64,000 nucleotides of DNA, taken from assembly GCA_044432725.1 (NCBI GenBank), contig JAWXUL010000004.1:48536-112535 (forward strand). Reading direction: 5' to 3'. Position 1 is the first letter of the stretch, and every line of letters begins with the position of its first letter. The notes beneath the pieces are model-generated. The model was not told where the DNA came from and did no database searches. It saw nothing but the letters and a program-made list of their open reading frames with translations. The DNA comes from Eubacteriales bacterium. GTDB taxonomy: Bacteria > Bacillota > Clostridia > Oscillospirales > Oscillospiraceae. The position numbers and the translations under genes are program-made. This document shows, piece by piece, positions 32,598 to 53,453 of this stretch.

Positions 32598-32633
32598 AAA
32601 AACACCTCCTACGACAGTGTATGAGGTGTTTTT
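32598..32633 (-). promoter_or_regulatory. 11-bp stem hairpin abutting the sigK start codon (terminator of the upstream gene, sequesters the sigK RBS)
   Basis: Minus-strand RNA: AAAAACACCUC-AUACACUGUCGUAG-GAGGUGUUUUU-AUG. The 3' arm contains GAGG of the AGGAGG RBS. The loop contains CATACAcT. Confidence 0.6.
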
Positions 32634-32637
32634 ACTT

Positions 32638-32826
32638 TTAGAACTCTAAGTCGAAATCTGTAGAAGCGAATTTCTTTCGGAGTTTTTCTTTTTCCATTTC
32701 CAGCGCTTCTTCTGACAAAGAAATACAAATGCAATCATAACACATACCAACTTCATCTAGGCTGACTTCTCCAGCAGTGCAGTGGTTATCTTCTTGGTAG
32801 ATACAAAATCTATGACGACAGGTCAT
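32638..32826 (-). CDS. small Cys-rich protein (62 aa, six Cys; DUF1540-like Cys spacing)
   Basis: MTCRHRFCIYQEDNHCTAGEVSLDEVGMCYDCICISL... with a strong RBS (AAGGAGGTGA). A frameshifted paralogue lies at 53208..53385. Confidence 0.6.
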   Translation of the reverse strand: MTCRHRFCIYQEDNHCTAGEVSLDEVGMCYDCICISLSEEALEMEKEKLRKKFASTDFDLEF

Positions 32827-32909
32827 AAAGTCACCTCCTTTTACATGGTGAATATTTTCACTATACTTTGGTTAAAAAAATAACCTATAATAAGGTAGAG
32901 GTGAATTCA

Positions 32910-33131
32910 ATGGCTATTAGTTATGTTCCTTTGGTGAAAACAATGGAAGAAAAAGAGATTTCTTGGTATTTTTTAGCTCAGCAAGGTATCGACCACAGAA
33001 CATTGCATCAATTACGGCATAATATGAACATCACTTTGAAAACCTTGGAAAAAATCTGTTCAATTTTACACTGTACTCCCAATGATGTTTTGGCTTTTGT
33101 CCCAGAAAAAGTAGAATCTACTGTAATATAG
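32910..33131 (+). CDS. small HTH DNA-binding protein (Cro/C1-like)
   Basis: 73 aa from ATG 32910 (RBS GAGGTG). WYFLAQQGIDHRTLHQLRHNMNITLKTLEKICSILHCTPNDVL resembles a short XRE/YozG-type HTH. Divergent from the Cys-rich gene. Confidence 0.55.
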   Translation: MAISYVPLVKTMEEKEISWYFLAQQGIDHRTLHQLRHNMNITLKTLEKICSILHCTPNDVLAFVPEKVESTVI

Positions 33132-33182
33132 TGAATGTAATCAGTATATAGAATTTTAAAGAAAAAGTCAATATTATTTTAA

Positions 33183-33435
33183 AGGCAGTCTTTCTTTTGA
33201 AAGACTGCCTATATTTTTATGTTTGGATCATTCGTATCATACCTCGATAAGTGTTACGAACTCAACAATGATACACCTCACTCTTTCAAGATGACAGCCA
33301 AGGATCAGAGAGGTTTTTCCCCATTTTGTTGGGATATCATTTCACAAGAGCAGAGGGAGAACAGGGCTCTGTCCAGAGGTTTACTGCGATGAAATTTCTC
33401 TACCACTTAGGCAGTTGGTACCAGTTGACACGGTG
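33183..33435 (+). repeat. left inner arm of a long-range inverted repeat (partner 52675..52850)
   Basis: Hairpin GGCAGTCTTTC..GAAAGACTGCC, then ACCTCGATAAGTGTTACGAACTCAACAATG...CAAGATGACAGCCAAGGATCAGAGAGGTTT. About nine in ten positions match the reverse complement of the right arm. The left copy carries a ~57-bp insertion/duplication. Confidence 0.8.
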
Positions 33436-33460
33436 ATTTGTAGCATAATTTTCTCCTTTT

Positions 33461-33694
33461 TCAAAAGGGTGGAAATGGTACAGAGTCGAGCCATGTCTGG
33501 ATGGAATCTTTGATTTTGCCAGCAATTTTCAGCATCATCTCATCTGTGTTATCTACATCCGCCACGGTTTCGTCATCATCCATACCGATTATGATGGTTC
33601 CACTCTCTGAATTGGCAAAAGCTTTGATGGTTTTCAGGATAGAGTCGCTGTATTCTCGTTTGTATTCTAGTTGTGACCCTTCCATTTGTATCAC
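33461..33694 (-). pseudogene. truncated AlbA_2 (Schlafen-like) DNA-binding-domain gene; only the first ~77 codons remain
   Basis: EGSQLEYKREYSDSILKTIKAFANSESGTIIIGMDDDETVADV matches the AlbA_2 N-terminal pattern. Full-length relatives are several hundred aa. The ORF stops 25 nt from the repeat-arm boundary. Confidence 0.6.
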
Positions 33695-33752
33695 CTCTTT
33701 TCACTATTTTATTATAAATGAAGTTGGAATGCAAGGATATTGAAAAGATTTA

Positions 33753-35066
33753 TCATCGAAAAATCCCTATCAATCCCAAAATCAGATATTCTTTTCCAAA
33801 ATAATCTTTTAATTCCAATAAACCGAGATAAATGACTGAGAGAAACAATTTCAGTTCTCGCTCACTTTTTGGTTTTCTCATTTTTTGTGCACCACTGAAA
33901 AAATATATTTCTTGGCAAAGTTCTTCTATCTGTTCAACTTTATAATTCAAATATTTTTCGTAATATTGCAAGGCATTTTTATTTAAATAAGCAGAAATTT
34001 CATCTAAAGCAGAATGAAAAACAGGTTGAGACTGAAAATAACGCACCTGTTTCAGGGAAAACCCCCATGTCTCTTTTACAATAGATTCAGCCTCTTTGTC
34101 TTTGATACAAGAAAAAAGAGAATCCTCCATGAATACATCAAAAAAAGGGACAACACAGGTTGATTTCACTTCTGTTTCACTGCGGTCAAACTCCAATAAG
34201 TTGGAAAGTTTCATAAAGCCCCATTGTGATAATGGAATATTTACAGAGTTATCCTTTTCAAAAAGAGAACATAATTGTGCAAATAGTCGTAAATAATCAC
34301 GGTTCTTATGAAAATTTTTTCCATTATCTTTGTCTATTTCATAGTGTTTGTAGCGAAAAAGAGATTCTAAATTCACTGAGATATCCTTATTTGTTTGAAG
34401 TCTGCTCACATGATTGACAATAATTTGATATAGATACAAAGGAGCTACTTTCCGTAGTGATTCATAGGAGTTTAAGTCAGAAATGAGAGTTTCTAGATTA
34501 TAAAGAAAAACCCCATTGCCCTTCAATTTATCCGTGAAAATTTTAGTGATATTCCAAAGTTCTTTGGTGCTGACATTTGTTTTAGGCAGAGATACTTGAT
34601 TTTTTTTGAATAGTTGAGGAACAATAAAATTCCATGACTCTGACAAAGATTCTATGATGGAAAGATTTTTTTCTACTTCTTCAAATTGATCCATAGCAAA
34701 TATAAATTCATCTGTACTTTGTTTTGATTGTGCCTGAAGTAAACTTCCTTGTTCAGGCAAGTAAAGTCTTAATAAACGCCCTAAATCTTTTGTATACACT
34801 TCTACTTCACTGATTGAGATGCAGGTCTGAAAGGAATCATCTAAATTAAATTGAAACTTTTCACCCAGATGAATCAGTTCTTTTTGCCATGTGATTCGTT
34901 TTTCTTCCACTTCCTCTAAACTTAGGTTTTCTTGCTTTAACCAATCTTCAAGGCTAAAATCCTCTTTTTCATTGAGAAATATCTCTTCCAGCTCTTCCAT
35001 AGACATCGTTTCATCATAGATCCCTTCTAGAACTTTTGCAGAAAAGAGATTGTCAAATAATTTCAT
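33753..35066 (-). CDS. hypothetical protein (437 aa, no recognisable motif)
   Basis: Long ORF in a visibly AT-richer stretch. The translation is helical-looking and K/E/L/F-rich. Lies upstream of, and is probably co-transcribed with, the AlbA_2 remnant. Confidence 0.6.
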   Translation of the reverse strand: MKLFDNLFSAKVLEGIYDETMSMEELEEIFLNEKEDFSLEDWLKQENLSLEEVEEKRITWQKELIHLGEKFQFNLDDSFQTCISISEVEVYTKDLGRLLRLYLPEQGSLLQAQSKQSTDEFIFAMDQFEEVEKNLSIIESLSESWNFIVPQLFKKNQVSLPKTNVSTKELWNITKIFTDKLKGNGVFLYNLETLISDLNSYESLRKVAPLYLYQIIVNHVSRLQTNKDISVNLESLFRYKHYEIDKDNGKNFHKNRDYLRLFAQLCSLFEKDNSVNIPLSQWGFMKLSNLLEFDRSETEVKSTCVVPFFDVFMEDSLFSCIKDKEAESIVKETWGFSLKQVRYFQSQPVFHSALDEISAYLNKNALQYYEKYLNYKVEQIEELCQEIYFFSGAQKMRKPKSERELKLFLSVIYLGLLELKDYFGKEYLILGLIGIFR

Positions 35067-35114
35067 TCATATCACCCTATTTTAGTATAGCACAGATATT
35101 TATAGCTTACAACA

Positions 35115-35156
35115 AGAAGTAGTTCCGAAAATTATATTTGTTTCGGAACTACTTCT
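35115..35156. promoter_or_regulatory. 16-bp perfect inverted repeat (AGAAGTAGTTCCGAAA-N10-TTTCGGAACTACTTCT) upstream of the 437-aa gene
   Basis: Lies about 50-90 nt upstream of the start at 35066, with no adjoining T-tract on either strand. Could be an operator or a leader hairpin. Confidence 0.45.
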
Positions 35157-35468
35157 CTTAAAAAAAGAACATATGGTATAAAATCAAACTATCAATGAAG
35201 GAAAGAGCCTATTGGTACCTCAGCCAATCACCTTATGCAAATAACGGATTTCCTATTTTACTATTTATAATGGCTTATTTTATCCATACTTTGAATAATT
35301 TAGTGTTGCCGATAAAAAAATTTCCCTTTCTCTTCCTCTGGGACATCTCTTTGCCTTTCTAGCATGATTCCTTCTGCCGTGGTTTTTCTGGATCTGGGGT
35401 TGACGACTCAATTTTTTTATGCTAAAATAGAGTTAGAGAAAACTAACTAACTGAAAGGAGTGCTAAAA

Positions 35469-35960: not shown

Positions 35961-36388
35961 GTCTGGTTCTATGAAATGATGTCACGGAAGAAAAGTGGCT
36001 CATTAAAGAAAAAAGAAACATTTCACCCAAGAAGGTTTGGTACAAAAAGAAACATTTATTCCGCAGATATCAGTCTTGTCGAGGCGGAAAAGCTTGATAA
36101 AATACCATCTTTGGAGATACCAGAGGATGGAATCGGAATGAATCAGCATATATATTGGTAACTGCTTATGCACCCTATTCCGACACAGTGATACATTATC
36201 TCAAAGAAGAAGGTCATGGCACAATCAACCATTACATGGAAAATGTCACTTTATATTCTACCCATTTAAGTAGCATCCCCCATCATCAGCGCCACATGGA
36301 TACACGATACTGACTTATCTGATTTGGAATGGGAGGGCTGATTTTTAGGCTATTTTAGTATGAATGTTATCTGAAAGTAGGTTTTATC

Positions 36389-38589: not shown

Positions 38590-38795
38590 TTTGCTAAGGC
38601 AATACCTCATAATTGCCGTTTTCAAATTTCAAGAAAAATTGTTTCCCCTAAAGGGACTTCCAAGGTCGCACAAAAAGTTGAAATTTGAGCGTAATCCTTG
38701 GTGGATTGCCGAAAATTTCAGCGAATTTGTGGGACGATTTTTGAAGGAATTTGGAAATGAGTGATTGTGAGGTGTTGCCCTAAGGATAGAGAGTA
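38590..38795 (+). repeat. copy A of a three-copy intergenic element (core AAAAAGTTGAAATTTGAGCGTAATCCTTGGTGGATTGCCGA)
   Basis: Core at 38672..38720. Its ends GGCAATACCTCATAAT / ATTGTGAGGTGTTGCC form imperfect inverted repeats. Related copies at ~54780..54900 and ~56150..56380. Confidence 0.6.
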
Positions 38796-38869: not shown

Positions 38870-41725
38870 TTAAGAAAGATTCGTAAAATTACTCAGCATA
38901 ACAGCCACTTCCACTCGTGAAACAACGCCATTGGGGGTGAGTGTACCATTTGCATTTCCTGACATCAAGCCATTTTTTACTGCCCAAGCAAGTCCAGACT
39001 GCGCCCAGCTATTTCCGCTCGTTCCGTCAGGATAGTCAGACAAAATGCCAAGTTCATAGCTGACATCTTTCCCTTGGACTGTTGCAAGCTGACGTAAAAT
39101 TAGAGCAAATTCTTCTCGACTCACATCTCCCACTGCGTTAAACCAAGTGCTTGTATTCCCAGCCATCACTTTATTTTCAAAACACCAACCAATGGCATTG
39201 GCATAATTCCCAACATCTGTGAAATCACTGGCATAAGTGCCACCATCTCCGCTCATATTATAAAGTGATTGTGCGATTAAGCCACGATTACTTGCCGTTC
39301 CGTAATTTTCTGGAGAAATATCCGTCATAATATCAGAAGATACGAAGTCGATATAAGTGCTTGCCCATGTGGGGTAAGAACTGCTTGGGGTGGTGACTTC
39401 TGGGGTGATGCTTGGGGTAGTTGTGGTAACTGGTGCTGTGGGCAATGTTGGCACAGAGGTGGGGATAATGGTGGGATTTTGGTTTTCCTTAGAAATATCT
39501 CCCAGAGAGGAGAATGTAAACACATTTGTATAGGAGGATAGTTGTGCTACGCTGGTATTGGGGTAGCCATAGACCACCAAGGAAGGATTGCTCTCCACAA
39601 ATGGATGGTTTAAAAGAATCATTACAATGAGATGTTGATAATAAAAGCAAGAACTGACAGTACTAGGTAACACAACTTTTGCCAAAGAACTACAGCCGAG
39701 GAATTGTGCCTTATCCGTATACGTAGTATTCTCGCCATAAGCAAAACTTCGGAATCCATAAGGGAAAATTGCTTCGCTCAGGCTGGTACAATGTTGGAAG
39801 GCAGCTAAACCAACATAGGATAATCTTGTATTACTGAAATCAAGTTTCCCTAGTTTAGAACAGCCATAGAAAGCATAATCATAAATATTTTTCGTGGTGC
39901 TTGGTAAAGTGATTTGTGGCAAAGTCGTGCAACCATAGAAAGCATAAGGTCCAATGTTCACAATGCCTTCTCGCAAATATACATCTTTTAAGGCAGTAGT
40001 ATTTAAAAAAGTAGATTCAGGCAACTGATCAATATCTGCCATGATAATGGCAGAGGACAAGAGGGAACATTCTTGGAACACATGGGTTCCCATGATACGC
40101 ACTGTGTCAGGCACATATGCCGAAGTCAAACCAGATCGATAGAACACCCCACGGGCGAACTCTACCACAGTACTGGGAATCCAAATATCTCGCAAAAGAG
40201 TGGTGCGAGCAAAACAATCACGACCTAAATATTCCAAGCCTTCGTTCAAAGTCACCGAATGTAAGTTGGTACAGCCGTCAAAGGCATATCCCTCAATTCG
40301 CTTGAGGGTATTTGGCATGGTAACAGAATCAATATTTGTCTTATTTTGAAAGACATTGGCAGCTATGCCAAGGACAGTCCTTCCACCAATGGTGGAAGGA
40401 ATCACCACATTGCCACCAGAACCAGTATAAGAGGTAATCAAACCACCTGCCCCAAGAACAAAATCCGATTCTGCACTTGCGTTGGGTGTTGGGACTGGAG
40501 TGACTTCCGTCACTACCATGTCAGATTTTTTGGGCAGTGCAGGGGCTGAGGTTGGGGACGTGATAGCGTTTTGATTTTCACTTGATGTAGACCCCAGAGA
40601 AGAGAAGCGAAACACATTTGTATAAGTGGAAAGTTTCGCCACAGAGGTATCTGGATAGCCATAGACCACCAAGGAGGGATTGCAGTCGATAAAAGGATGG
40701 TTTAAGATTTCATAATTATTCGTGAGATAGTTCAGCACCAGCCCAGCGCTAAAATTGGGAATGGTATAGCGCCAATAGCAAGAACTTAAAGTGCTAGGTA
40801 GCACCACTTTTTCCAAAGAAGTACATCCATAAAATTGCGCCTTATCTGTATAGGTATAATTCTCGCCATAAGCAAAACTTTGGAATCCATAAGGGAAGAT
40901 CGCTTCCCTTAGGCTGAGACAATGTTGGAATGCTGCTAAACCCACCGAAGCTAGTTGGGTATTGGAAAAATCAAGCTTCTCCAGTTTAGAACAAGCAAAA
41001 AAAGCATATTGGTTGATGGTTTTGGTGCTGCTTGGTAGGGTGATTTCTGTTAAACTTTTACATCCATAAAAGGCATAAGGACCAACAGTGGCAATGCCTT
41101 CTCTTAAGTAGACTTCTTTCAAGACGACAGAGTTTAAGAAAGTAGATTCTGGTAAGAGGTTGACATTTGCCATGAAAATCACCTCTGTGAGACGTTGACA
41201 TTCTTGGAACACATGAGTGCCCATACTTCTCACTGTGGCAGGCACATATGCAGAGGTCAAACCAGATTGATAAAACACCCCACGAGCCAATTCCACCACG
41301 GTACTAGGAATCCAAATGGCAGTTAAATTGGTGGTGCGGGCAAAAGAATCACGACCTAAATATTCCAAACCTTCATTCAAATCCACAGAGCGTAAGTTGC
41401 TACAGCCATCAAAAGCATACTATTCTATCCGTGTCAAAGTACTTGGCATGGTGACAGATTCTATGCTTGTCACATTTTGGAAGGCACTCGTCCCGATGCT
41501 GTACACTGTCTGCCCGCCAATGGTAGAAGGGATGACCACATCGCCACCAGCTCCTGTATATTTTGTGATGATTCCACCACTGCCCATGGTGAAATCTCCT
41601 TCACTACTGGCGAGAGTTTGGGTATAAACTCCTGTTTCCTCTGTGATTTCTCTGGCAAAGCTGACCATAGATACACTGGATAAGAGCATAGAGCTTGCTA
41701 GAATGAAGGGTAATAATTTTTTCAT
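38870..41725 (-). pseudogene. BspA-type leucine-rich-repeat surface protein with C-terminal SLH-like repeats, interrupted by one in-frame TAG (41420..41422)
   Basis: ORF 41725..41423 (signal peptide plus first repeat, ...LTRIE) and ORF 41386..38870 are in the same frame, separated by a single TAG: TRIE*YAFDGCSNL versus the second module KRIEGYAFDGCTNL. Two ~1-kb tandem modules. Confidence 0.75.
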
Positions 41726-41945: not shown

Positions 41946-42341
41946 GTGGTATCATTCCATGACCTGATTTTAAAAGAAGATAGCCCGATATATTTGCAAA
42001 TCATAGCCCATGTCAAAGCAGGGATCGTGGGAGAACTGATCAAAAATGGAGATGAAATGCCCTCTCGAAGAACAGTTTCAGCTCTTTTAGGGGTGAATCC
42101 AAACACAATTCAAAAAGCTTATAGGCAAATGGAAGAAGAAGGTTTGATATACTCCCACGCAGGGGCGAAAAGTTCCATTACTGTTTCCCAAGCACAGGTA
42201 AAGGAATTGAAAAAAGAGTTGCTTGAAGGGGATATTTTACACATCATCCTTCGTTTACAGGCGATCGGGCTAAAAAAAGAGGATGCATTCACACTGTTAG
42301 AAGATTTATGGGAGGAGAATGAAGATGAAACAAAAATTTAG
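41946..42341 (+). CDS. GntR-family transcriptional regulator (YtrA subfamily)
   Basis: 131 aa, GTG start. PIYLQIIAHVKAGIVGELIKNGDEMPSRRTVSALLGVNPNTIQKAYRQMEEEGLI winged-helix pattern and a short C-terminus. Confidence 0.85.
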   Translation: MVSFHDLILKEDSPIYLQIIAHVKAGIVGELIKNGDEMPSRRTVSALLGVNPNTIQKAYRQMEEEGLIYSHAGAKSSITVSQAQVKELKKELLEGDILHIILRLQAIGLKKEDAFTLLEDLWEENEDETKI

Positions 42342-43062
42342 TTTATTATCCTTGGTCAGTAGCCATACACTGAAACCTGTGATTTCAATTTGCATTATAA
42401 TGGCAAGTTTTCAAGCTGGACTACTGTATTATTTTGGAGTAAAACAAGAGGAACTTATGAATTTCAACGGAAGTATACAGCCATTTTATGCGTGGGGGGA
42501 GCATTTTTGGATGGAATTAAGCTATCTTATAGCACTTTGTGGAATTCTTGTCCTTTGCCTTTTAGAAAACTCTCTTCGTAATGGTAAGTATACATTGTTG
42601 CGACTAAGTACAAAGGAAACTGATTTCTTTCTTGCCTGCTTTTTTAACACATTGTGTTGCCTTTTGCTCTTGTGGGCAGTGGAGGCGATTGTACTAATTT
42701 GTGGAAGTTATTACTATATTTCAGTCACACCTTCTGATTTTCTCACCAATCAAAGTATTTTTCTTGCAACGTTATACAGCAACTTTCTCCAAGGGATTTT
42801 TCCAACGGTTAATCTGGCTGTTTGGGTGAAAAGTATGCTACAAATACTGTTAATTTCCTCCACTGTGGCAAGTGTTTCCACAAGTATCCTACAGGGGAAG
42901 TTGAGGAAATATTTGATAGGTTTCCTTGTTTTTCTTGTGCTAAACTATTTTTCCTCTAGGTATGTAGAAAGTAACCTTGTTTTTTCTGTGATTTATGCTG
43001 TGTTATTGGTGTTTGTGCTGAAAGGAGGCTTGTCTTGTGAAAGAGAAAAGGAAACAATGTAA
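42319..43062 (+). CDS. membrane protein of the YtrA-type operon
   Basis: 247 aa with multiple TM helices. Overlaps the neighbouring genes (translational coupling). Confidence 0.6.
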   Translation: MKMKQKFSLLSLVSSHTLKPVISICIIMASFQAGLLYYFGVKQEELMNFNGSIQPFYAWGEHFWMELSYLIALCGILVLCLLENSLRNGKYTLLRLSTKETDFFLACFFNTLCCLLLLWAVEAIVLICGSYYYISVTPSDFLTNQSIFLATLYSNFLQGIFPTVNLAVWVKSMLQILLISSTVASVSTSILQGKLRKYLIGFLVFLVLNYFSSRYVESNLVFSVIYAVLLVFVLKGGLSCEREKETM

Positions 43063-43582: not shown

Positions 43583-44297
43583 AAAATACTTGCCAGTAAG
43601 CAAGGCATTGGACTCTGTGAATCTCGACTTACCACGAGGAGAAATCGTGGGAATTTTCGGAGAAAATGGAGCCGGTAAAACAACATTGATGAAATCTGTC
43701 TTCAATTTTCATCACTATGAAGGGAAAATAACCTTAGATGGTGAAAAAATCACTCGTGCCAACATCAATAAACTTTCCTTTGCTACCTGTGAACATTCCT
43801 TCTTTCCTAAGATTACTGCAACAGCACATCGTGAATTTTATGAAAATCATTTCACTACTTTTCGCAGAAAACGCTACGAAACCTTGATGGAGTTTTTTGA
43901 ACTTCCTCAAAACAAAAAAATAAAAAGCTTTTCCACAGGGCAAAAAAATCAATTTGAGGTCATTATGGCACTGTCACAGGGAGCTGATTACATTTTCATG
44001 GACGAACCCTTTGCTGGGAACGATATTTTCAACCGTGAGGACTTCTATAAGGTGCTTTTGGGGATTTTAGAAGAACAGGAAACTTTGGTCCTATCCACCC
44101 ATTTAATCGAAGAAGTTTCCAATTTTATTGGTCGTGCCGTGCTGTTCAGCAAGGGGAAAATCATTGGGGATACCACTCTGGAGGACTTGGAAGAAAAGGG
44201 CTTAATGGCTTATGTGAAAGAGTCCTATCAATACCAAAATGACCGAGTCAGCCGTGCTTTGGAAAGATTTCAGGAGGAAAAGGAGGGAGATACATGA
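43557..44297 (+). CDS. ABC transporter ATP-binding protein
   Basis: Walker A GENGAGKTT, signature FSTGQKNQ, Walker B IFMDEP. Ends in TGA overlapping the next start (ATGA). Confidence 0.9.
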   Translation: MLKLENINKKYLPVSKALDSVNLDLPRGEIVGIFGENGAGKTTLMKSVFNFHHYEGKITLDGEKITRANINKLSFATCEHSFFPKITATAHREFYENHFTTFRRKRYETLMEFFELPQNKKIKSFSTGQKNQFEVIMALSQGADYIFMDEPFAGNDIFNREDFYKVLLGILEEQETLVLSTHLIEEVSNFIGRAVLFSKGKIIGDTTLEDLEEKGLMAYVKESYQYQNDRVSRALERFQEEKEGDT

Positions 44298-45706
44298 ATA
44301 AATCAGCGATATTCTCGATCTTCTTTGCAGTGGTTTCTGTTCTTGTCATTGGAGGCACTTCCGTGAAACTTGCCTCTGTGAAAGAAGAAGTGACAATCAG
44401 TCAAACTGTTTTAGTGGGGGATGAAAGTCTTGTGACTAACATTCAGATGAATTTAATCACTTATGATCAATATATGAACTCTTGGGAGATGAATATACCC
44501 TTATCTGCACCAGAAGAGAGGGAAACTACCTTCTGTTTTAATGTGAATCCTTGGATTGCTTATCCCAACGAATCAGAAGGGGATTTTTACCTTGGAACAA
44601 GTGTTAATATTTCAGGCTCCACCATGGGAACAATGGATTTTGAACTCATGGAACAAGAGCAAGGACACGAACAACTTTCAAGAGAGATGCTACTACCTTT
44701 TTTGATGCTAAAAGAAGTAGCAAGTGCCACTCCATTAGGGGAAACCCACAGTGAAACTTTATCTATGGCAGATTATTATGATTACTTACCTCTTAGTTTT
44801 AACATTTTCCCCAAAGGGGCTCGAGCCTTTGTCAATCCTTCTTATGATATTTTACAAGATTATTTTAAGTTTCCTGTTCACCCAGAGATAAAACTGAACA
44901 TCACCGTTGAAAAAAGCATGGAGGGGGTCAAAGCTTATTCTGTTAAAAATGCGGGGGATATTACTTCTGAAATTCTGGCATCTTATGTGATGGTGGAGGA
45001 TGGTATCATTGCTGCGACACAATCAGTGACTTATCAGGTTTCCATGCCAGATGAATGGAGTATAATCAACGAATTCATCAGGCAAGAAGAAACTCAAATC
45101 ACTAAAATTTCTTGGAATCATGTGAATGATGGGAATATCAGCACTGTGGAAATAAACGATGTTTATGAAATTTCTACCCTTGATTCTTCTTATACTATCT
45201 TTGATATGGTGGATTTAGGAGAAAATTTAGGGGTATTGCAGGAAAAAAAGGACCAATATTCTTTTTCTGTCCGTGACAAAGAAAGTTTTGAAGAACTTCA
45301 ATCGGTACCTCTCAGCCATGATGGCTATACAATCAACGAAGTGGATGGTGCATTTCTGATTGTTTCTTCTATTTCTCCAGAGGAAACAGCACGTTTCACC
45401 GTGTTAGAACAAGAGAACGACCATGTTTTCATCGGATTAGAGGGGGAAGATAGGTATCTTTTGGAAGGTGAAGAGAACAAGTATTACTCTATGGCACATT
45501 ATAATTATCATAAAGGGCATCTTTCAATGATAAGAGAGTATCGACGACATGATCAACATTTAGGTGATATATTCGTGAAAGTTTTCGATGAAAGTGGTAT
45601 GTATTTTGCCAGTCTTTACGAAAGTAGCCAAACAATCCAAGGAGAATATTACAATGGTATTGATTATGTGCAACTCTTTGACCAAGCAGAAATTACTTAT
45701 AAATGA
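44294..45706 (+). CDS. membrane-anchored extracytoplasmic protein (470 aa, function unknown)
   Basis: A single N-terminal TM/signal anchor (AIFSIFFAVVSVLVIGG) followed by a large soluble domain. Last gene of the GntR-ABC operon. Confidence 0.6.
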   Translation: MNKSAIFSIFFAVVSVLVIGGTSVKLASVKEEVTISQTVLVGDESLVTNIQMNLITYDQYMNSWEMNIPLSAPEERETTFCFNVNPWIAYPNESEGDFYLGTSVNISGSTMGTMDFELMEQEQGHEQLSREMLLPFLMLKEVASATPLGETHSETLSMADYYDYLPLSFNIFPKGARAFVNPSYDILQDYFKFPVHPEIKLNITVEKSMEGVKAYSVKNAGDITSEILASYVMVEDGIIAATQSVTYQVSMPDEWSIINEFIRQEETQITKISWNHVNDGNISTVEINDVYEISTLDSSYTIFDMVDLGENLGVLQEKKDQYSFSVRDKESFEELQSVPLSHDGYTINEVDGAFLIVSSISPEETARFTVLEQENDHVFIGLEGEDRYLLEGEENKYYSMAHYNYHKGHLSMIREYRRHDQHLGDIFVKVFDESGMYFASLYESSQTIQGEYYNGIDYVQLFDQAEITYK

Positions 45707-46071
45707 AGAAACTCCTGTAAATTTTAACCACTAATGCCCAAAGCACGGAAGATTCAACAGATCATGGAGAGAGTACCTTTGTCCTTGGACGAAGGTACTC
45801 TGATTATATTCTATCCTATTTTGCAACCACTCGACTTAGGTCAGATAGTGATTGCAGTTTCTCTAATATTTTAGGAAAGTTTTTTCCAGTTTCATAAAAA
45901 CTTTATGCACTATGTGGATCAGCTATACTAAGTTGTACAGAAAAAAATCGAACTGTGTGTTATACTAGACAATAAGAAAGAGGTGATACACATGGCAGAA
46001 AAAGTAAAAAAATACTAGATGAATTCAAAAAGCAAATCGTTTAATTTTCCCAAAGGTATAGATAAATGTGA

Positions 46072-46137: not shown

Positions 46138-49100
46138 TTAGACCTTAACATTTTGATTTATTTCTTGGATGATTTTGTGTATTCCTTGCCATACTGAAAG
46201 ATCCGTGAAAATCTCAACAACGCTTCCTTTGGAAGTGAACGGTGCTTCTTGCAAGACAGATAGGTCCTTCATCATACCATTTTCCACGATGTACTCCACA
46301 ATTTGGTTCACAAAGTAAATTTGTCGATCATCTAAATTCGCATTACTTAAAAACACCCCAAAGGCTTTTTTCGCTGCATTCATATCCAGTCCAAGAATTT
46401 CTCGGACAAATTCCCCTAGAGGTTTTTCGCCAAAGGTGTTTTCATATTCTTCGGCTGTGCCTACTTGACTCCATAAAATATCTTGTAAATCAACCATATC
46501 CTCAAATGTAAGTGGCTCATTATGCTTTAATTTCGCAATGGTTGGGTGATTTTGGTGTTCACGCACATAAAACTCTGCTTTTTCTTTATAATTTTTTAAA
46601 TCATCATTTTCTAAGTCAGATTCATGCCACTCCGTGGTGATTTCATCCGTGAAGTTGGTGCTATAAATGCGGTGTTCCTTTTTTATAAATTTCACCAAAC
46701 CACGTAGAGACTTTCTGATGTGTTCAAATTCTGGGATTGTTGCCTCCCCCATGTAATCATTGTGTAAAATTTTCTCGATTAACTCGTGTTGCGCCGTGAT
46801 TTCAGGAACATTTTGGATTCTGGAAATATCATTTACTCTTTGAAATAAATCACCTATTCCTTTAGACATTGGTTTTTTAGCCAAAAAGGCAAACTCTATC
46901 CCATAGAGAAGGGCATCGAATCGCAAAGCAGAAATTTCATCCTTGTCTGGCAAGATAAGATGTGCCAAATGTTCAGAAATCAGTGCCGTATCCTGAGAAG
47001 TGAGAGAATCATATGCCTTTTTATCGGAAAATTTCTCCACAAACTCTAAGTGCTGCTGCACTGCAAAGTGTTCTTTGTTTAATTCAGATACTTTTCCTAC
47101 TACTTCAATGACTAAGTTTTCTCTGATTTCTTGTAATTCAGGGCTTTGATAATCGAAGTCTTGGAGCAATAGAACTAATTTCGCCTTTAAATTCACCAAA
47201 GCACCTTGCAAAGGGAGGATATTGTTGGAAGTTTTTCCTTCGTGCATACGGAAGAACTTGAAATTTCCACAACAATCGAAAATATAGAACTTGCTTTTAT
47301 CCGTCCCGTCAATCAGGTTGGGACAAAGACGAGTGCCACGTCCAATCATTTGCCAAAACTTCGCTTTACTCATGACTCGTTTGAAAAATACCAGATTAAC
47401 CACCTCAGGAATATCAATCCCAGTGTCTAACATATCCACAGAAATGGCGATGTGTGGCATTTTATTCCCATCAGTGAAGCTATCAATGGCAGTTTCTGCA
47501 TAGTTAATATAATTATCAATGACTTGGGCAAAACCAGGAAGATGTGGATAGTTTTTGTTGAATATTTCGTATATTTTCTCTGCATGTAGATGATTCTTTG
47601 CGAAAACAATGGTTTTCCCTAGTTTGCTACCATAGTCCACTGAAATCCCTTGTGTCATCACCAAGTCCAACACTTTCGAGATGGTATCTTCGTTAAAAAG
47701 CCACTCATTCAGGGCAGAGGAAAGGATTTTTTTCGGAACATTCCCTGCATCATCGGTAAAAGTCTCTTCAAATTCTTCTTTTTCCTCGTCACTTAGGTCA
47801 TCATAGTGAATGCCTTCGTCAATGAATTTCAATTTACTTTCCACAGACATAAAATCCACTAAATATCCATCTCTCACAGCTTGGGCAAGTTCATAGCCAT
47901 AAGTGGGGATTCCCTTGTCCAGTTGGAAGATTTCATAGGTGTTTTTGTCAATTTCGTCCTTAGGTGTTGCCGTCAAACCCACCAAAGGCGCATCAAAATA
48001 GGTGAAAATATCCTTGTACTTGTTATAAATAGAGCGATGTGCCTCGTCACAAATCACAAGGTCAAAGTGACCTGTGGTAAACAGCTTCCCATCCTTGTCT
48101 TTGATTGTGTCAATGCAGTTGATCATTGTTTGATACGTAGAAAAAACGCAGTGAGCAGAGGTGTTTTTCTTATCTTCACAGAGATTTGTACAAGAAAGAT
48201 TAGGTAAAAGATTGACAAAGCTCCTTTTTGCCTGAGAAATCAGTGGAGTTCTGTCTGCTAGGAACAATATGTTTTTCACCCAACCATGTTTTTGCAGAAT
48301 CTCACAAAGTGCGATGACAGTTCTCGTTTTCCCCGAACCTGTTGCCATCACAAGGAGTGCTTTCCTCTGATTTTCTTCCAAAGTACGACAAACGGCTCGA
48401 ATAGCGCCTTCTTGGTAGTACCTATCTGCAATTTTCTTGTTCATTTCAATGTTTTTCAGGGGAGTTCGTTGTTTTCGCAAATTATAGAGTTTTTCCAAGT
48501 CTCGTTTTGCGTAAATCCCAGCCACTTTTCTTTCTGGATATTGCCAATCAAGAAGTCTGTATTCAAATCCGTTGGTTAAAAATAACACAGGTTTCACTCC
48601 ATGCTGTTTTTCAAGCAATTCAGCATACAATGTCCCTTGAATCCTTCCTTTTTCCACGGAAACAGAGGTTCTTTTTGCTTCAATGACGGCTAGAGGCTTA
48701 CCAACATCGTCATAAAGGACATAATCAGCGAAACCAACTTCGGATTTATTTGGCATTCCTTGCAGTTCTACCTCGTCAATCCAATTTCCCTTTTGTTTCC
48801 AACCTAAATCACGCAACATGGTGTCAATATATATTTTTCTGGTGGCATATTCTGATAAATCCAGAGGTTTTGGCTCGTAAGATTCTTTCTTTTCCTCGCA
48901 ACGCTGAGAAAGTTCCTCTCTCACATCCTCCTTTTCTTTCTGCAACGTGGTGAAGTCCACTTCAGAAATAGGACTGGCAGGGACGGCTTCTCCTTGCTTC
49001 AGTAAAACAGGGTCAAATTCTCTGTCCTCATAATGTTCCCCATAGCAATAGCCCAAGAAGTCAAGAAAAATATAGAGATTTTGCAAACAAATAGTGGCTT

Positions 49101-49416
49101 TTTGTTCTGAGATTTCTGCTTTTTCGTGGCTGGTATCATTCCCAGCTTTTCGAATAAAATCAAGTCGAAAGAACAACTCAGGATCTATAAACTGCTTAAA
49201 GCAACGAGCCGTCAACAGGCTGTGAAGGGTGCTGTTTTCTGGAAAATATAGTGCATTTTCCACAGAATAGAGCCATTTTATGGCGAACTCCATGGCTCTG
49301 CGACAGTTGACTGCTGCTGTGGCAGGGTCAATGGCAAAGCATTTCTCTGCATTCACTGCCACTTTGGCAAAGGTTTGAAATTGTGGTTCTTTGGTAAAAT
49401 GATCGAAGTTGGTCAT
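46138..49416 (-). CDS. hsdR: type I restriction endonuclease subunit R
   Basis: N-terminal DUF4145-like region, helicase motifs MATGSGKTRT and ICDEAHRS (DEAH), QMIGRGTR. Start set at ATG 49416 (MTNFDHF), just after the DUF559 remnant stop. Confidence 0.9.
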   Translation of the reverse strand: MTNFDHFTKEPQFQTFAKVAVNAEKCFAIDPATAAVNCRRAMEFAIKWLYSVENALYFPENSTLHSLLTARCFKQFIDPELFFRLDFIRKAGNDTSHEKAEISEQKATICLQNLYIFLDFLGYCYGEHYEDREFDPVLLKQGEAVPASPISEVDFTTLQKEKEDVREELSQRCEEKKESYEPKPLDLSEYATRKIYIDTMLRDLGWKQKGNWIDEVELQGMPNKSEVGFADYVLYDDVGKPLAVIEAKRTSVSVEKGRIQGTLYAELLEKQHGVKPVLFLTNGFEYRLLDWQYPERKVAGIYAKRDLEKLYNLRKQRTPLKNIEMNKKIADRYYQEGAIRAVCRTLEENQRKALLVMATGSGKTRTVIALCEILQKHGWVKNILFLADRTPLISQAKRSFVNLLPNLSCTNLCEDKKNTSAHCVFSTYQTMINCIDTIKDKDGKLFTTGHFDLVICDEAHRSIYNKYKDIFTYFDAPLVGLTATPKDEIDKNTYEIFQLDKGIPTYGYELAQAVRDGYLVDFMSVESKLKFIDEGIHYDDLSDEEKEEFEETFTDDAGNVPKKILSSALNEWLFNEDTISKVLDLVMTQGISVDYGSKLGKTIVFAKNHLHAEKIYEIFNKNYPHLPGFAQVIDNYINYAETAIDSFTDGNKMPHIAISVDMLDTGIDIPEVVNLVFFKRVMSKAKFWQMIGRGTRLCPNLIDGTDKSKFYIFDCCGNFKFFRMHEGKTSNNILPLQGALVNLKAKLVLLLQDFDYQSPELQEIRENLVIEVVGKVSELNKEHFAVQQHLEFVEKFSDKKAYDSLTSQDTALISEHLAHLILPDKDEISALRFDALLYGIEFAFLAKKPMSKGIGDLFQRVNDISRIQNVPEITAQHELIEKILHNDYMGEATIPEFEHIRKSLRGLVKFIKKEHRIYSTNFTDEITTEWHESDLENDDLKNYKEKAEFYVREHQNHPTIAKLKHNEPLTFEDMVDLQDILWSQVGTAEEYENTFGEKPLGEFVREILGLDMNAAKKAFGVFLSNANLDDRQIYFVNQIVEYIVENGMMKDLSVLQEAPFTSKGSVVEIFTDLSVWQGIHKIIQEINQNVKV

Positions 49417-49417
49417 C

Positions 49418-49774
49418 TTATTCATTCCTTTCTGTAATGATTGCATCATTAAGTTTTTGGCAAACTTCTCGAAAATGATTTTTCACTTCGTGATTGGTAA
49501 AACGAATGACTTTTAAGCCTAAACTATATAAGATTTTTGTTCTTTCTGTATCATAACTCATACCTTCCTCAGTATAATGCTGAGATCAGTCAAGTTCTAT
49601 CACCAGTTTAGCTTTGTGACAATAAAAGTCAACGATATAATTACCAATGATACGTTGTTTATAAATTTTGACTGGGTAGTGCCTCAAAAAATCGTACCAC
49701 AATTTTCTTTCTTCTTGTGTCATTTCTTTTCTTAGGCTTTTGGCTCTGCTAAGTAATTTATTGTTTTTCATCAC
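49418..49774 (-). pseudogene. DUF559 (Vsr-like endonuclease) gene with an in-frame TGA at 49586..49588
   Basis: Same frame reads ...YCHKAKLVIELD*SQHYTEEGMSYDTERTKILYSLGLKVIRFTNHEV. The stop sits where I remember this family having Gly (ELDGxxH), so GGA->TGA is the likely change. Confidence 0.7.
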
Positions 49775-49805
49775 TTCTGCTCAAAGATTCGCAATTTTCA
49801 AGAAC

Positions 49806-49946
49806 GCCCTCTCAGTCTTTTCCCCTGAAGAACACCCTCTCAGTCGCCTGAGGGCGACAGCTCTCCCAAAGGGAGAGCCAAAAGCCACGCACCCTCCTCT
49901 GCCTCTCCCTCTGGGAGAGGTGCCTCCGCAGAGGCGGAGAGGGTTA
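49806..49946. repeat. second copy of the GC-rich structured repeat family
   Basis: CCCTCTCAGTC...GACAGCTCTCCCAAAGGGAGAGCCAAAAG...GCCTCTCCC-TCT-GGGAGAGG-TGCCTCC-GCA-GAGGCGG-AGAGGGTTACCC aligns with units of 28803..29182. Fills the hsdS-DUF559 gap. Confidence 0.75.
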
Positions 49947-51056
49947 CCCAAAATACCCCTGCATTCTCTCTGCAAAGAGCATTTCCATCTTCACAAGCCC
50001 CTCTTCCATTTCTTTTTTTGCTTCCTCTACGCTTTGGACGTATAGGGCGAATTGTTCTTGGAGGGGGAGGGGGGGGAGAGGGAAACTTATTTCATTTAAC
50101 TTCGATTGATTTAGTTTTGGTTGTGCAGAGCCAGTTACGAATGGTGTTAAATCAATTTTGTTAAATAAATATTCGCAGTAAGTTTGTGTTGCTGTTGCGT
50201 GGAAAGAAAGTACATGAGCATGATTATTAATCCAACATTTTTCTTCAACAGAAAATGCTATAGCTGTTGTTCTAGCGAGTAGATTTGCCCCATCTTCGGA
50301 AATTAAAAGTAGTCTTTCATCAAAAATATAGTCGTTTACATAATCAATTATACCAGAAGCTCCATAATAGGGATATTTTCCAAGTTTTCGATCGTTACTT
50401 GTTATCGGAACCCTTCTGTTATCTAAATTTTTCGAAACATCATCAAGATTTTTTTCCTCCCACGCCATAGGATTCACCACTGGATCCCCAAACATCTCCA
50501 CAAACTTCGCCTTCACTAGCAAATTCAGTTTCTTGATTTGCTCTTTCCGTAGAGCGATGATTTCACTGATTTCATCTAATTCGTGAGCGATTTCTTGCTG
50601 TTTTTCAAGGGGTGGGAGGGGGAGATTAAATTTTGACAGCCAACCTGTATTCAAATTTGCTTGTGACGCACCTTTTACATTTTGTCTAATTTGTTCAAAA
50701 AAGCTTTTTGAAAACATCCAATAATACAAATATTTCAATTCTAAATTATCTTTATTTTTATTTCTAAAGAACCCTAAACTCACGAAAGTTCCAAATAAAG
50801 GAGTGTTTTTTTCAATTATTACTGGTTTCCCCAATGTTCCAACACGACAGAATAGCATATCACCAATTTGTGGCTTTGCACCTTTAGGTAGCGAGTTATA
50901 TTCTTCTTCTGTAATGTAACTGCATTTTTCAAAATTTATAAAACCTTGACTGATATCTTTAACAGATAGAAAAGGAACTCCCTGCTCTTGGTATTTAGGT
51001 GTATGCGTTAGTCCTAACGAAATCTGAACTATTTCTTCTAACTTCACTTCACTCAT
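49944..51056 (-). CDS. hsdS: type I restriction-modification specificity subunit S
   Basis: Two target-recognition halves separated by conserved helices (LPPLEKQQEIAHELD / LPPLPLQEQFALYV). ATG 51056 overlaps the hsdM stop (ATGAGTGA). Confidence 0.9.
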   Translation of the reverse strand: MSEVKLEEIVQISLGLTHTPKYQEQGVPFLSVKDISQGFINFEKCSYITEEEYNSLPKGAKPQIGDMLFCRVGTLGKPVIIEKNTPLFGTFVSLGFFRNKNKDNLELKYLYYWMFSKSFFEQIRQNVKGASQANLNTGWLSKFNLPLPPLEKQQEIAHELDEISEIIALRKEQIKKLNLLVKAKFVEMFGDPVVNPMAWEEKNLDDVSKNLDNRRVPITSNDRKLGKYPYYGASGIIDYVNDYIFDERLLLISEDGANLLARTTAIAFSVEEKCWINNHAHVLSFHATATQTYCEYLFNKIDLTPFVTGSAQPKLNQSKLNEISFPLPPLPLQEQFALYVQSVEEAKKEMEEGLVKMEMLFAERMQGYFG

Positions 51057-52548
51057 AAAACCCCTCCAACGCTTCCAATTTCGCCCCAATTTTTTTCTCT
51101 ATCTCAGAAATATCTGCTAAAATCTCCTTTGTTGGTGGGTAGACTTCTGCCACATACACTGTCTTTTTATACTTATTGATTGACAAATCATAGGCATTTT
51201 CCACGATTTCCTCTTTGGGAACGATGAAACTTTGTTCCGTCCGTTCCCGACTTCCCTCTGCCTCAACTTTACTAAATCGCTCCAAAATATCAGGGATATC
51301 GTTGTCAGAAATCTCACTTCGCTTGTCATCCAGTGAAAAACCATCAGCCTTCATGTCATAAAACCACACAGAATCTGTTCCACCATGCCCTGTTTTTGTA
51401 AAAATCAAAATCCCTGTACTCACCCCAGCATAGGGCTTAAATACCCCTGAAGGCATGGAAATCACAGCTTCAAGGCGATGATTTTCAATAATTTCTTTCC
51501 GAATCGCCTTATGCGCCGTAGAACCACCGAACAAAACACCATCAGGGACAATGACAGCACAGCGACCACCCACACGCAACATACGCAGCATCAGTGCGAG
51601 AAAAAGAAGTTCACTTTTCTTGGTTTTGCATACTTTTATCAGATGTCCAGAGACAATATCGTTGTCAATGCTTCCTTTAAAGGGTGGATTCGCCAAAATC
51701 AGAGAATATTTTTCGAAATCCGTGTTCTGATCTGACAAACTATCCCGATAATCTATGGAAGGGTTGTCCACACCGTGACTCATCATGTTCATAGCACCAA
51801 TGCGAAGCATGGTAGCGTCTGTGTCATAACCTGTGAACATTTCATTCATATAATGGTCCTTTGTTTCTTTGTTTCGGAGAATTTCACCATTATTTTTCTC
51901 TTTTAAGTAGTCACCACTTGCCACCAGAAAGCCAGATGTGCCACAAGCAGGGTCACAGATGAAATCCGTAGCAGAAGGTTCCATCAACTCCACCATCATA
52001 CGAATGATGTGTCTTGGCGTGCGAAATTGACCATTTAAGCCAGATTGTGCAATTTTTGAGAGCAAATACTCATAGACATCCCCACCAATATCCTTGTTGT
52101 GGAGTTCGTCCATACTAGCATAAATCTCATCTAAGGAATCCACCACTTTTGACAGCAATAAGGGGGTGGGGAGGTTAAAATTTGCCTTTTCCATATACTT
52201 AGCGTAAGAAGTTTGTTTTTCTCCGTGGAGATTCTTGATGAAAGGAAAGACAAAGTTACCCATCATGTCAAACATTTTTTCAGCAGGGAAATCGTGAAAA
52301 ACGGACCATTTCAGCTGTTCCCCAGAGATGGTTTCTCCTGAAATGGTGACTTCCTCAGGAAAAAGTGACTGAAAAGGCAGTCCTAACATGGCTGATTCCT
52401 TATTTCTCATCATATCGTTGTAATCCAGTCCACGAATGAACATCAAATAGGTGATTTGTTCCACCACTTCCAGTGGGTTCACGATGCCACCCGCTGCGAA
52501 CATATCCCATAAGCTGTCGATTTTGTTACGTAATTCCCCTGTAATCAT
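51049..52548 (-). CDS. hsdM: type I restriction-modification DNA methyltransferase subunit M (N6-adenine)
   Basis: 499 aa. FRTPRHII, DPACGTSGFL (motif I), LANPPFKGS (motif IV). Confidence 0.92.
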   Translation of the reverse strand: MITGELRNKIDSLWDMFAAGGIVNPLEVVEQITYLMFIRGLDYNDMMRNKESAMLGLPFQSLFPEEVTISGETISGEQLKWSVFHDFPAEKMFDMMGNFVFPFIKNLHGEKQTSYAKYMEKANFNLPTPLLLSKVVDSLDEIYASMDELHNKDIGGDVYEYLLSKIAQSGLNGQFRTPRHIIRMMVELMEPSATDFICDPACGTSGFLVASGDYLKEKNNGEILRNKETKDHYMNEMFTGYDTDATMLRIGAMNMMSHGVDNPSIDYRDSLSDQNTDFEKYSLILANPPFKGSIDNDIVSGHLIKVCKTKKSELLFLALMLRMLRVGGRCAVIVPDGVLFGGSTAHKAIRKEIIENHRLEAVISMPSGVFKPYAGVSTGILIFTKTGHGGTDSVWFYDMKADGFSLDDKRSEISDNDIPDILERFSKVEAEGSRERTEQSFIVPKEEIVENAYDLSINKYKKTVYVAEVYPPTKEILADISEIEKKIGAKLEALEGFYE

Positions 52549-52615
52549 AATTGTACCTCATTATTTCTTTGTTTTAGAGGAAAAGCCTTCCTCTTTGTCA
52601 GTTCTTGTCAAAATA

Positions 52616-52644
52616 ATTATACCATAATAGGGAAATGATTACAA
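52616..52644 (-). promoter_or_regulatory. sigma-A-type promoter of hsdMS(R)
   Basis: Minus strand: TTGTAA, 17-nt spacer, TGgTATAAT (extended -10). About 65 nt upstream of the hsdM ATG. Confidence 0.5.
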
Positions 52645-52674
52645 GGAGAGGGGAGGGATTTCGTGGGATTTTCC

Positions 52675-52850
52675 ATGATGTCAACCCTAAGGAGAAAAAT
52701 CCTCCCAGTAAACCTCTCTCATCCTTGGCTATCATCTTGAAAGAGAGGGATGTAACATTGTTGAGTTCGTAACACTGATCGAGGTAGGAAAGGACTGATA
52801 CAAACATAAAAAATAGGCAGTCTTTCACAAGAAAGACTGCCAAAAAATAT
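52675..52850 (-). repeat. right inner arm of the long-range inverted repeat (partner 33183..33435)
   Basis: The reverse complement reads GGCAGTCTTTCTTGTGAAAGACTGCC...ACCTCGATCAGTGTTACGAACTCAACAATG...CAAGATGATAGCCAAGGATGAGAGAGGTTT. Confidence 0.8.
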
Positions 52851-52875
52851 AACTATTTCTTCTGTTGTTCGCCAC

Positions 52876-53112
52876 TTATATATCTTCCACTTCTATAAAA
52901 AGTTGGTATGGCTCAATTCCTAGAACTAGGCAAATACGAAAAAGAATGTCCAAAGAAGGGGTTTTCTCGACGTTTCGTGCCTCGATATGACTGATATGTG
53001 TGCGAGATATGTTTGTCTTATGTGCCAATCCTTCTTGGGTTAAATGCTTCTTTTTTCTGTAATAAGCCACATTTTTTCCAATTATTTCATAGTAGTCCAT
53101 AGTTTCGTCCAT
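52876..53112 (-). CDS. XRE-family HTH transcriptional regulator (possible controller of the R-M operon)
   Basis: 78 aa. YRKKKHLTQEGLAHKTNISRTHISHIEARN is a classic Cro/C1 HTH. Same strand as, and directly upstream of, hsdM. Confidence 0.8.
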   Translation of the reverse strand: MDETMDYYEIIGKNVAYYRKKKHLTQEGLAHKTNISRTHISHIEARNVEKTPSLDILFRICLVLGIEPYQLFIEVEDI

Positions 53113-53207
53113 TTCATCACCCTTATTAAGTGTAACCTAAAACAGTCATCAATTTGCTTGCTATAAGCTAGCAAATCTGTTATACTTTATTCAGAGGAGG
53201 TGACTTT

Positions 53208-53385
53208 ATGACCTGTCGCCATAGATTTTGTATCTACCAAGAAGATAACCAATGCACTGCTGGAGAAGTCAGCCTAGATGAAGTTGGTATGGTTAGGATT
53301 GTGTTGTATTTCTTTGTCAGACGAAGCACTGGAGAAGGAAAAAGAAAAACTCAGAAAGAAATACGATTATGATGATTTCGACTAA
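53208..53385 (+). pseudogene. frameshifted paralogue of the small Cys-rich gene
   Basis: The first 84 nt differ from the 32826..32743 copy at 2 positions. Two 1-nt deletions then shift the frame after ...EVGM. The homologous C-terminus (CCISLSDEALEKEKEKLRKKY) continues in another frame to TAA 53383..53385. Confidence 0.65.
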
Positions 53386-53413
53386 GCGTGATAAAGTAAA
53401 ATCACACAAACAA

Positions 53414-53453
53414 ACACCCCCAAATGTTAGAAAAATCTAAGATTTGGGGGTGT
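53414..53453. terminator. bidirectional terminator hairpin
   Basis: ACACCCCCAAAT-loop-ATTTGGGGGTGT between convergent genes. Confidence 0.65.

Follow-up and report, generated by a model that had tools for sequence, protein, structure and literature searches.

Two related stretches of DNA face each other in opposite orientation 19.4 kb apart in the chromosome region analysed here, and the question raised by this locus is whether they are the ends of an element that moves or inverts, or copies of something smaller. The region, called the window below, comprises 64,000 nucleotides (nt; C4:48536-112535) of the draft genome G000 (3.45 Mb, 149 contigs). G000 is the single assembly of this organism on record, and the proteins encoded by the repeats are known from one contig only. 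For comparison, we used the sister species G001, the sole congener, whose fragmented assembly is 70-82% identical to G000 at the nucleotide level. The element in question is a small cassette with a gene for a cysteine-rich (Cys-rich) protein and a divergent gene for a small helix-turn-helix (HTH) protein, present once on either side of the 19.4 kb. On balance, we consider it rather probable that the two repeats are paralogous copies of this self-contained regulatory cassette with a swapped regulator, in a region that is decaying and rearranging, rather than the termini of an element that can move or invert.

Two inverted cassettes with common flanks and different regulators

Self-comparison of the window revealed two inverted repeat blocks flanking the 19.4 kb. 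The outer block, arm A, pairs 32626-32839 with 53405-53195 (214 nt, 88.8% identity), and its inner 97 nt are 98% identical. The inner block, arm B, pairs 33159-33316 with 52861-52710 (158 nt, 86% identity) and, in a gapped alignment, extends past a 66-nt indel to a TTGACA common to both copies at ~33428 and 52686. The 66-nt stretch, present in the left arm B (33309-33382) and missing from the right arm, has AGAGGTTT direct repeats on both sides and looks like either a microhomology-mediated deletion on the right or a duplication-insertion on the left. In total, the arms share ~370 nt at 86-89% identity, with longest perfect matches of 39, 32, 24, and 21 nt. The whole G000 genome contains exactly two copies of the arms, both in the window, and since these are 11-14% diverged, an assembly artefact is excluded.

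Each side carries one cassette of 0.75-0.85 kb, which reads from outside to inside as a hairpin, the Cys-rich gene, a divergent promoter region with the small HTH gene, a terminator, and a tail of ~250 nt. The parts, with the basis of each assignment (ORF, open reading frame; aa, amino acids), are:

32638-32826, minus strand: left Cys-rich gene, intact, 62 aa, with five family-conserved cysteines; core of arm A (ORF and repeat comparison)
32840-33158, plus strand: left variable module, promoter/operator region and HTH_26 gene (Pfam HTH_26, 6.8e-12; alignment)
33159-33428, plus strand: left arm B, intrinsic terminator at 33183-33210 and non-coding tail (repeat alignment, terminator prediction)
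52686-52861, minus strand: right arm B, terminator at 52816-52841 and non-coding tail (repeat alignment, terminator prediction)
52862-53194, minus strand: right variable module, HTH_3 gene with its own promoter/operator region (Pfam HTH_3, 1.7e-12)
53195-53405, plus strand: right arm A, Cys-rich pseudogene (translation and alignment to the left copy)

Both regulator genes are intact. The left HTH_26 gene (32910-33131, 73 aa) is accompanied by a promoter-like site at 32840-32867, and the right HTH_3 gene (52876-53112, 78 aa) by one at 53158-53186 that faces the Cys-rich pseudogene. The two regulators belong to different Pfam families and are 29% identical over 42 aa, and the ~320 nt between arms A and B, which make up the variable modules, show no DNA homology between left and right. 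Promoter/operator region and HTH gene are swapped as a block exactly from the ribosome-binding site (RBS) of the Cys-rich gene to 25 nt before the terminator. The terminator itself, GGCAGTCTTTC-N4-GAAAGACTGCC followed by a T-run, is common to both arms and is predicted to be a strong intrinsic terminator on either side. A previous sequence-only reading of this DNA had described mirror-image gene modules in inverted orientation, a terminator hairpin shared by the inner arms, two differing positions in the first 84 nt of the Cys-rich genes, unrelated HTH genes between the arms, and a replacement of the regulator as a cassette. The repeats and their copy number, the terminator predictions, the alignment of the Cys-rich genes, the separate Pfam families, and the block exchange between conserved flanks bear out all of these points.

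The tail behind the terminator shows no coding signal. A small ORF in arm B, the sole one shared by the two copies, was rejected on the even distribution of its 13 mismatches over the codon positions (5/4/4), which indicates that the tail is non-coding. This tail, previously taken for a leader, has no Rfam match at the gathering score, and the hits with E values of up to 5 represent noise only. Neither of the searched collections of genome contigs and metagenome contigs contained an exact 21-mer taken from arm B. Close relatives of the arms were found neither by a protein-seeded search of genome contigs nor in the phage collection, and a word-indexed protein search with the arm proteins returned only the window's own two proteins.

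The right Cys-rich copy (53208 onward) matches the left copy at 82 of the first 84 nt, after which lesions begin. The five-Cys motif is lost: the copy lacks a single base at each of two positions and has TAG in place of TAT within CxxC. The original frame is still recognisable past the lesions (SLSDEALEKEKEKLRKKY vs SLSEEALEMEKEKLRKKF). A sequencing slip would not account for three changes in a stretch of 20 nt, and we class the right copy as a pseudogene. The sequence-only reading had missed this state.

A family of five-Cys proteins with interchangeable partners

The left Cys-rich protein has no match in Pfam, NCBIfam, PHROGs, or PADLOC. Neither a sequence search of the PDB nor a Foldseek search of the PDB with its AlphaFold2 model (mean predicted local distance difference test score of 75, C-terminal helix at residues 39-56) returned a match to a known fold. 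A HMMER search of 1.84 billion representative proteins yielded 213 clusters (50% identity) at E<1e-3, nearly all of them with lengths of 55-90 aa. The family consensus is MxCENxFCIYxxxxxCxLxxISLDxxGxCxxCIxV...KxKLL. In an alignment of 52 members, its motif C-x4-C-x7-C-x12-C-x2-C shows no exception at C3, C8, C16, or C29, and at least 90% of the sequences also have C32; all five cysteines occur in the left copy. The few named members are listed as 'hypothetical protein' from metagenome-assembled genomes (MAGs) of Eubacteriales. The protein belongs to a real, unnamed, and uncharacterised family of Clostridia-wide distribution, and it is probably metal-binding. The family is sporadic, being present in 16 of 399 sampled Clostridia genomes and in 3 of 41 relatives, and we found no Cys-rich gene in G001.

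Analysis of ten contexts in other genomes revealed a small HTH_3, HTH_26, or Arc/ribbon-helix-helix (RHH) gene in divergent orientation in eight of them; one of the remaining contexts has a co-directional RHH-like gene and the other is without such a neighbour. As both HTH_26 and HTH_3 occur among the family partners, the versions in the window represent two of the usual partner types. We infer that the small DNA-binding partner most likely represses the Cys-rich gene.

The clostridial genome G026 repeats the pattern seen in the window, with multiplied copies, differing partners, and decay of the extras. It carries three Cys-rich copies (L043 8023-8243, L044 10011-10232, and L045 8071-8280) that are 85-89% identical over the ~210-nt gene only, and their partners, two different XRE genes and one Arc/RHH gene, differ from copy to copy. 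Just one of the three is intact; in the other two, the gene is disrupted by a frameshift, a Cys>Tyr change, or an in-frame stop. Two further Cys-rich copies lie three genes apart on a 9.4-kb MAG contig. The combination of copy gain, partner swap, and decay of extras in two genomes hints at a potent, tightly gated effector. We regard this unannotated, widespread five-Cys mini-protein with its interchangeable partner as a more useful outcome than the inverted repeat.

Age and proposed history of the cassette pair

The window pair is ~89% identical in DNA and its closest match among the 1.84 billion representative proteins is 49% identical in aa sequence; the copies are thus each other's closest relatives and have a recent common source. 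Divergence is 13% in the neutral-looking tail and 18-30% in the DNA of G000-G001 orthologues; taken together with the missing cassette in G001, this indicates that the pair is probably younger than the split of the two species.

We infer the following order of events. The lineage would have acquired the cassette after the split from the sister species and would have come to carry the two copies now seen in opposite orientation. Regulator and operator would then have been exchanged in one copy, giving HTH_26 on the left and HTH_3 on the right; an exchange of so exact a block would need recombination with another allele sharing both flanks. The right Cys-rich gene would have decayed afterwards. 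The 19.4 kb between the copies would have been built piecemeal via insertions, deletions, and insertion sequence (IS) activity, leaving genus-shared genes, a type I restriction-modification (R-M) operon, and numerous gene remains side by side. The inverted repeats would be a by-product of this history, at which rare RecA-dependent inversion or gene conversion might occur without forming a switch.

The left cassette lies on the sigK promoter

The left Cys-rich gene is directly followed, on the same strand, by sigK:

31893-32597, minus strand: sigK (pro-sigma-K), intact, 234 aa (NCBIfam NF004471, 275 bits vs a cut-off of 252; Pfam Sigma70_r2 and r4)
32598-32637, minus strand: hairpin between the stop of the Cys-rich gene and the start of sigK, with the sigK RBS and a CATACACT -10-like box (sequence reading; comparison with G001)

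Homology between G000 and G001 upstream of sigK ends at ~32633, exactly at the edge of arm A. The sigK upstream regions of the two species (window 32598-32640 vs L011 3880-3926) have only ~35 nt in common (CACC..CATA..GTCGTAGGAGGTGTTTTTATG). In G000, the Cys-rich gene occupies with its 3' end the place of the sigK -35 region, which means that the left cassette sits on the sigK promoter. Transcription of G000 sigK may rely on read-through or on a promoter with a -10 element only. Both this cassette copy and the cassette family merit follow-up.

In G001, sigK has a classic skin-type interruption: codons 1-114 are on one contig (L011 3924-4280, G001:C59) and codons 110-230 on another (L047 5397-7488, G001:C39), directly after the gene for a 575-aa SpoIVCA-like large serine recombinase. 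A link between the DNA enclosed by the arms and a skin element was rejected for G000, where sigK is intact. When we looked for an empty site in G001, synteny between the two genomes had already broken down to the left and to the right of sigK.

The DNA between the arms is a mosaic

The main features of the interior are:

33461-33694, minus strand: truncated AlbA_2/Schlafen-type gene, 77 codons, broken end abutting arm B (Pfam PF04326, profile positions 1-78 of 118)
33753-35066, minus strand: AT-rich orphan, 437 aa, GC 33-35% (no Pfam, NCBIfam, PHROGs, or PADLOC match)
35969-36118, plus strand: decayed third HTH_3 copy, frame broken (76% DNA identity to the right-arm HTH gene)
38591-38783, no strand assigned: dispersed repeat of ~190 nt resembling a miniature inverted-repeat transposable element (MITE-like; >20 copies on other contigs, 70-96% identity; at least 14 G000 contigs involved)
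38870-41725, minus strand: BspA-type leucine-rich repeat (LRR)/S-layer homology (SLH) surface-protein gene, split into two ORFs of 101 and 838 aa (ORF and domain search)
41946-45706, plus strand: GntR(YtrA)-type regulator followed by a five-gene ABC operon (Pfam GntR, ABC_tran)
45915-46041, plus strand: left-end remnant of an IS3-family element, terminal sequence and first ~15 orfA codons, broken (127 nt, 96.7% identity to the ends of C6 and C118)
46138-52548, minus strand: complete type I R-M operon with hsdM at 51049-52548, hsdS at 49944-51089, and hsdR at 46138-49449 (Pfam and PADLOC)

The HTH_3 relic sits between the gene for a 166-aa membrane protein and a metallo-beta-lactamase (MBL) gene; no HTH gene was found beside the G001 orthologues of either. 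A GNAT gene accompanies the MBL gene, and the interior also encodes a 240-aa membrane protein. Altogether, at least six gene fragments or pseudogenes lie between the arms. A search for the missing 3' half of the AlbA_2 gene identified no AlbA_2 paralogue in the G000 genome. The IS3 remnant is located between the ABC operon and hsdR, and a related full IS on C81 has HTH_Tnp_1, HTH_21, and rve domains. The same IS3 end is found at the contig ends of C6 and C118, which makes the IS one reason why the assembly breaks there.

All three R-M genes are full length (PADLOC: REase_I 2e-150, MTase_I 2.5e-177, Specificity_I 9e-60). Inside the operon lie a truncated DUF559 gene (49586-49774) and a GC-rich element resembling repetitive extragenic palindromic (REP) sequences; hsdS is single at this locus, with no partial copies. 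The promoter-like site of hsdM (52644-52616) comes after the right arm B. G000 carries a second type I R-M locus (C38 ~10985-17247), whose DNA is 70-79% identical to parts of the window hsdM and hsdR and whose HsdS is 35% identical in aa sequence.

For several interior genes, we identified orthologues in G001: the 166-aa membrane protein (84% aa identity), the MBL protein (86%), HsdM (72%), HsdR (63%), and, on G001:C67, the whole GntR-ABC operon (28-72%). These orthologues are on different contigs and have different neighbours. The G001 R-M operon (L012 1-4800, G001:C20) adjoins the gene for a large serine recombinase of >549 aa and ORFs typical of an integrated mobile element, and its contig ends directly after hsdR. 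It lacks an HTH gene like that at the right arm, and the DNA upstream of hsdM is unrelated in the two species. Among 300 genomes of the order, only the R-M and ABC-domain DNA matched, at 65-71% identity. As far as these alignments reach, nothing between the arms is a recent transfer detectable in the data. To the right, poorly conserved DNA runs past the arm and homology to G001 resumes at ~56.3 kb; the arms therefore do not delimit it.

These results bear on what the sequence-only reading had said of the interior. Its list of contents (type I R-M, orphan, MBL, GNAT, broken LRR/SLH gene, and GntR-ABC operon) was correct, and the left arm does end next to the truncated AlbA_2 gene, whose stop at 33461 is ~30 nt from the arm end. 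The proposal that the ~19 kb form one accessory cargo disagrees with the mosaic of blocks, the pseudogenes, and the blocks found elsewhere in G001, and the continuation of poorly conserved DNA to ~56 kb contradicts the idea that the arms bracket such a cargo. A defence-island scaffold had also been considered. Type I R-M is the only defence system recognised by PADLOC between the arms, the orphan, the AlbA_2 fragment, and the membrane proteins being without a match, and we conclude that the segment is not a defence island. The view of the left arm end as a recombination scar is supported, since arm ends coincide with breakpoints, namely the truncated AlbA_2 gene and the end of G000-G001 homology upstream of sigK. 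The IS3 remnant, the MITE-like repeat, the HTH_3 relic, and the G001 orthologues of several interior genes had been overlooked.

Inversion, island formation, and independent acquisition

None of the features of a programmed invertible element (recombinase, toggled promoter, hsdS repeats) is present. Genome-wide searches located no tyrosine (PF00589) or serine (PF00239) recombinase in the window, as already stated by the sequence-only reading, and gave 18 and 30 matches, respectively, elsewhere in the genome. Promoter prediction identified no outward promoter uniquely placed at the arm ends and no toggled promoter. tRNA genes are present nearby; no repeat of the 3' end of tRNA-Ser, tRNA-Arg, or tRNA-Pro was found at the locus, and self-comparison of the window detected no flanking direct repeat or target-site duplication at the arms. 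The arms encode the Cys-rich and HTH proteins only and no transposase, and the sole IS trace returned by a repeat search is the internal 127-nt IS3 remnant. GC skew shows no change of sign at the arms; a negative stretch at 46-55 kb spans the right arm.

Against this background, true inversion of the 19.4-kb segment by homologous recombination between the repeats appears improbable. The inverted geometry, the extent of homology, and the perfect runs of 39, 32, and 24 nt speak for it and make homology-driven inversion physically possible, and the 97-nt tract of 98% identity could be an exchange footprint. A crossover in arm A would place the intact Cys-rich gene, and perhaps read-through into sigK, under the other regulator, and one in arm B would swap what follows each terminator, including hsdMSR. 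However, perfect runs of 39, 32, 24, and 21 nt are near the lower limit for RecA-dependent exchange, as is the identity of the arms, no site-specific recombinase is encoded in the window, one arm is a pseudogene, and the skew is undisturbed; the 98% tract has an explanation in sequence constraint, as discussed below. We give very little credence to the more far-reaching idea that the arms recombine as a recombinase-independent two-state regulator-swap switch of a sporulation-linked locus. If true, a crossover in the 98% tract would take the sole intact Cys-rich ORF out of HTH_26 control and place it under HTH_3, sigK transcription could follow by read-through of the hairpin, and the R-M operon would also invert. 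It is likewise highly unlikely that the inverted cassettes delimit a composite mobile element or a genomic island comprising the whole block from 32.6 to 53.4 kb. Its inverted terminal modules, its accessory-type content (R-M, orphan, AT-rich stretch at 33-35 kb), and the nearby tRNA genes would suit an island, but the arms lack a transposase or integrase as well as a target-site or att duplication, poorly conserved DNA extends beyond the right arm, interior blocks have orthologues scattered through G001, and nothing similar was found elsewhere in the contig collections or in the 300 genomes of the order.

Paralogous cassettes with a swapped regulator, the explanation we favour, have to be weighed against several observations. 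A recent exchange between the arms may have left its mark in the 98% tract, in which case the arms do interact: arm A has 2 differences in the 97-nt tract and 22 in the other 117 nt (Fisher p = 6e-5), and elsewhere the arms are 82-87% identical. This distribution suggests gene conversion between the arms. We did not accept gene conversion as proven, as the synonymous contrast within the Cys-rich gene, with a proportion of synonymous differences of 0.06 (~1/15.7 sites) in the 5' part and 0.25 (~3.5/13.8) in the 3' part, rests on 1 vs 3.5 changes and is not significant alone; tighter constraint on the N-terminal Cys motif can account for the tract. Comparative resolution is poor, with one fragmented congener at 70-82% nt identity and synteny lost around sigK. 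Furthermore, so exact a regulator swap would fit two acquisitions from an allele pool equally well as duplication followed by replacement. The lineage might thus have acquired related 'heteroimmune' cassette alleles twice and independently, possibly on two related mobile elements or prophage remnants, 19 kb apart and in opposite orientation. Each allele would have brought in adjoining DNA, namely the AlbA_2 gene and the orphan with the left cassette and the R-M operon with the right one. We consider such a double acquisition possible but doubtful. It is consistent with the need for an allele pool sharing both arms, with the serine recombinase and mobile-element-like ORFs beside the G001 R-M operon, with the richness of G000 in mobile elements, and with some Cys-rich relatives that lie beside phage terminase-like or IS200-like genes (seen in translations only, without profile support). 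Against it stand the lack of any allele above 49% aa identity in the searched collections, the absence of mobile-element genes beside either arm, and the unrelated DNA upstream of hsdM in the two species, so that the cassette does not belong to the conserved make-up of the R-M element.

Likeness to known systems

Exchange of a DNA-binding gene together with its promoter/operator region as a block between conserved flanks resembles the immunity regions of heteroimmune temperate phages; the window cassettes are without phage context, however, their payload is a single 60-aa Cys-rich protein followed by a terminator, and repression is putative. A tiny HTH or RHH regulator combined with a small gene of unknown or potent function is also reminiscent of acr-aca operons and of R-M systems controlled by C-proteins, the latter likeness being reinforced by the position of the right HTH gene upstream of hsdM. 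In contrast to these systems, the window genes diverge and do not form an operon, the HTH gene is set off from hsdM by a terminator, and the orthologous R-M operon of G001 has no such gene. The Cys-rich protein matches no PADLOC model, in a library that consists of defence and not anti-defence proteins. Phase-variable type I R-M shufflons share with the locus a type I R-M operon within inverted-repeat bounds, whereas the window repeats lie outside a single hsdS and there is no recombinase. The position beside sigK, together with the split sigK and large serine recombinase of the sister species, recalls skin elements, but the window sigK is intact and the cassette lies upstream of sigK and not within it. 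The locus is best viewed as a pair of inverted paralogues of a repressor-type mini-cassette within decaying and rearranging chromosomal DNA; the copy next to sigK is alive and that next to hsdM is dead.

With dispersed inverted paralogous repeats such as rrn operons, IS copies, and duplicated genes, the arms have in common inverted homology tens of kb apart, the lack of a dedicated recombinase, and the physical possibility of inversion. They differ from them in being short (214 and ~250 nt), 86-89% identical, split by a 320-nt non-homologous block, and in part a pseudogene. As a long-range inverted repeat, the locus is ordinary and illustrates how inverted homology arises from duplicated small cassettes in a rearranging, pseudogene-rich region of a gut Clostridia chromosome.

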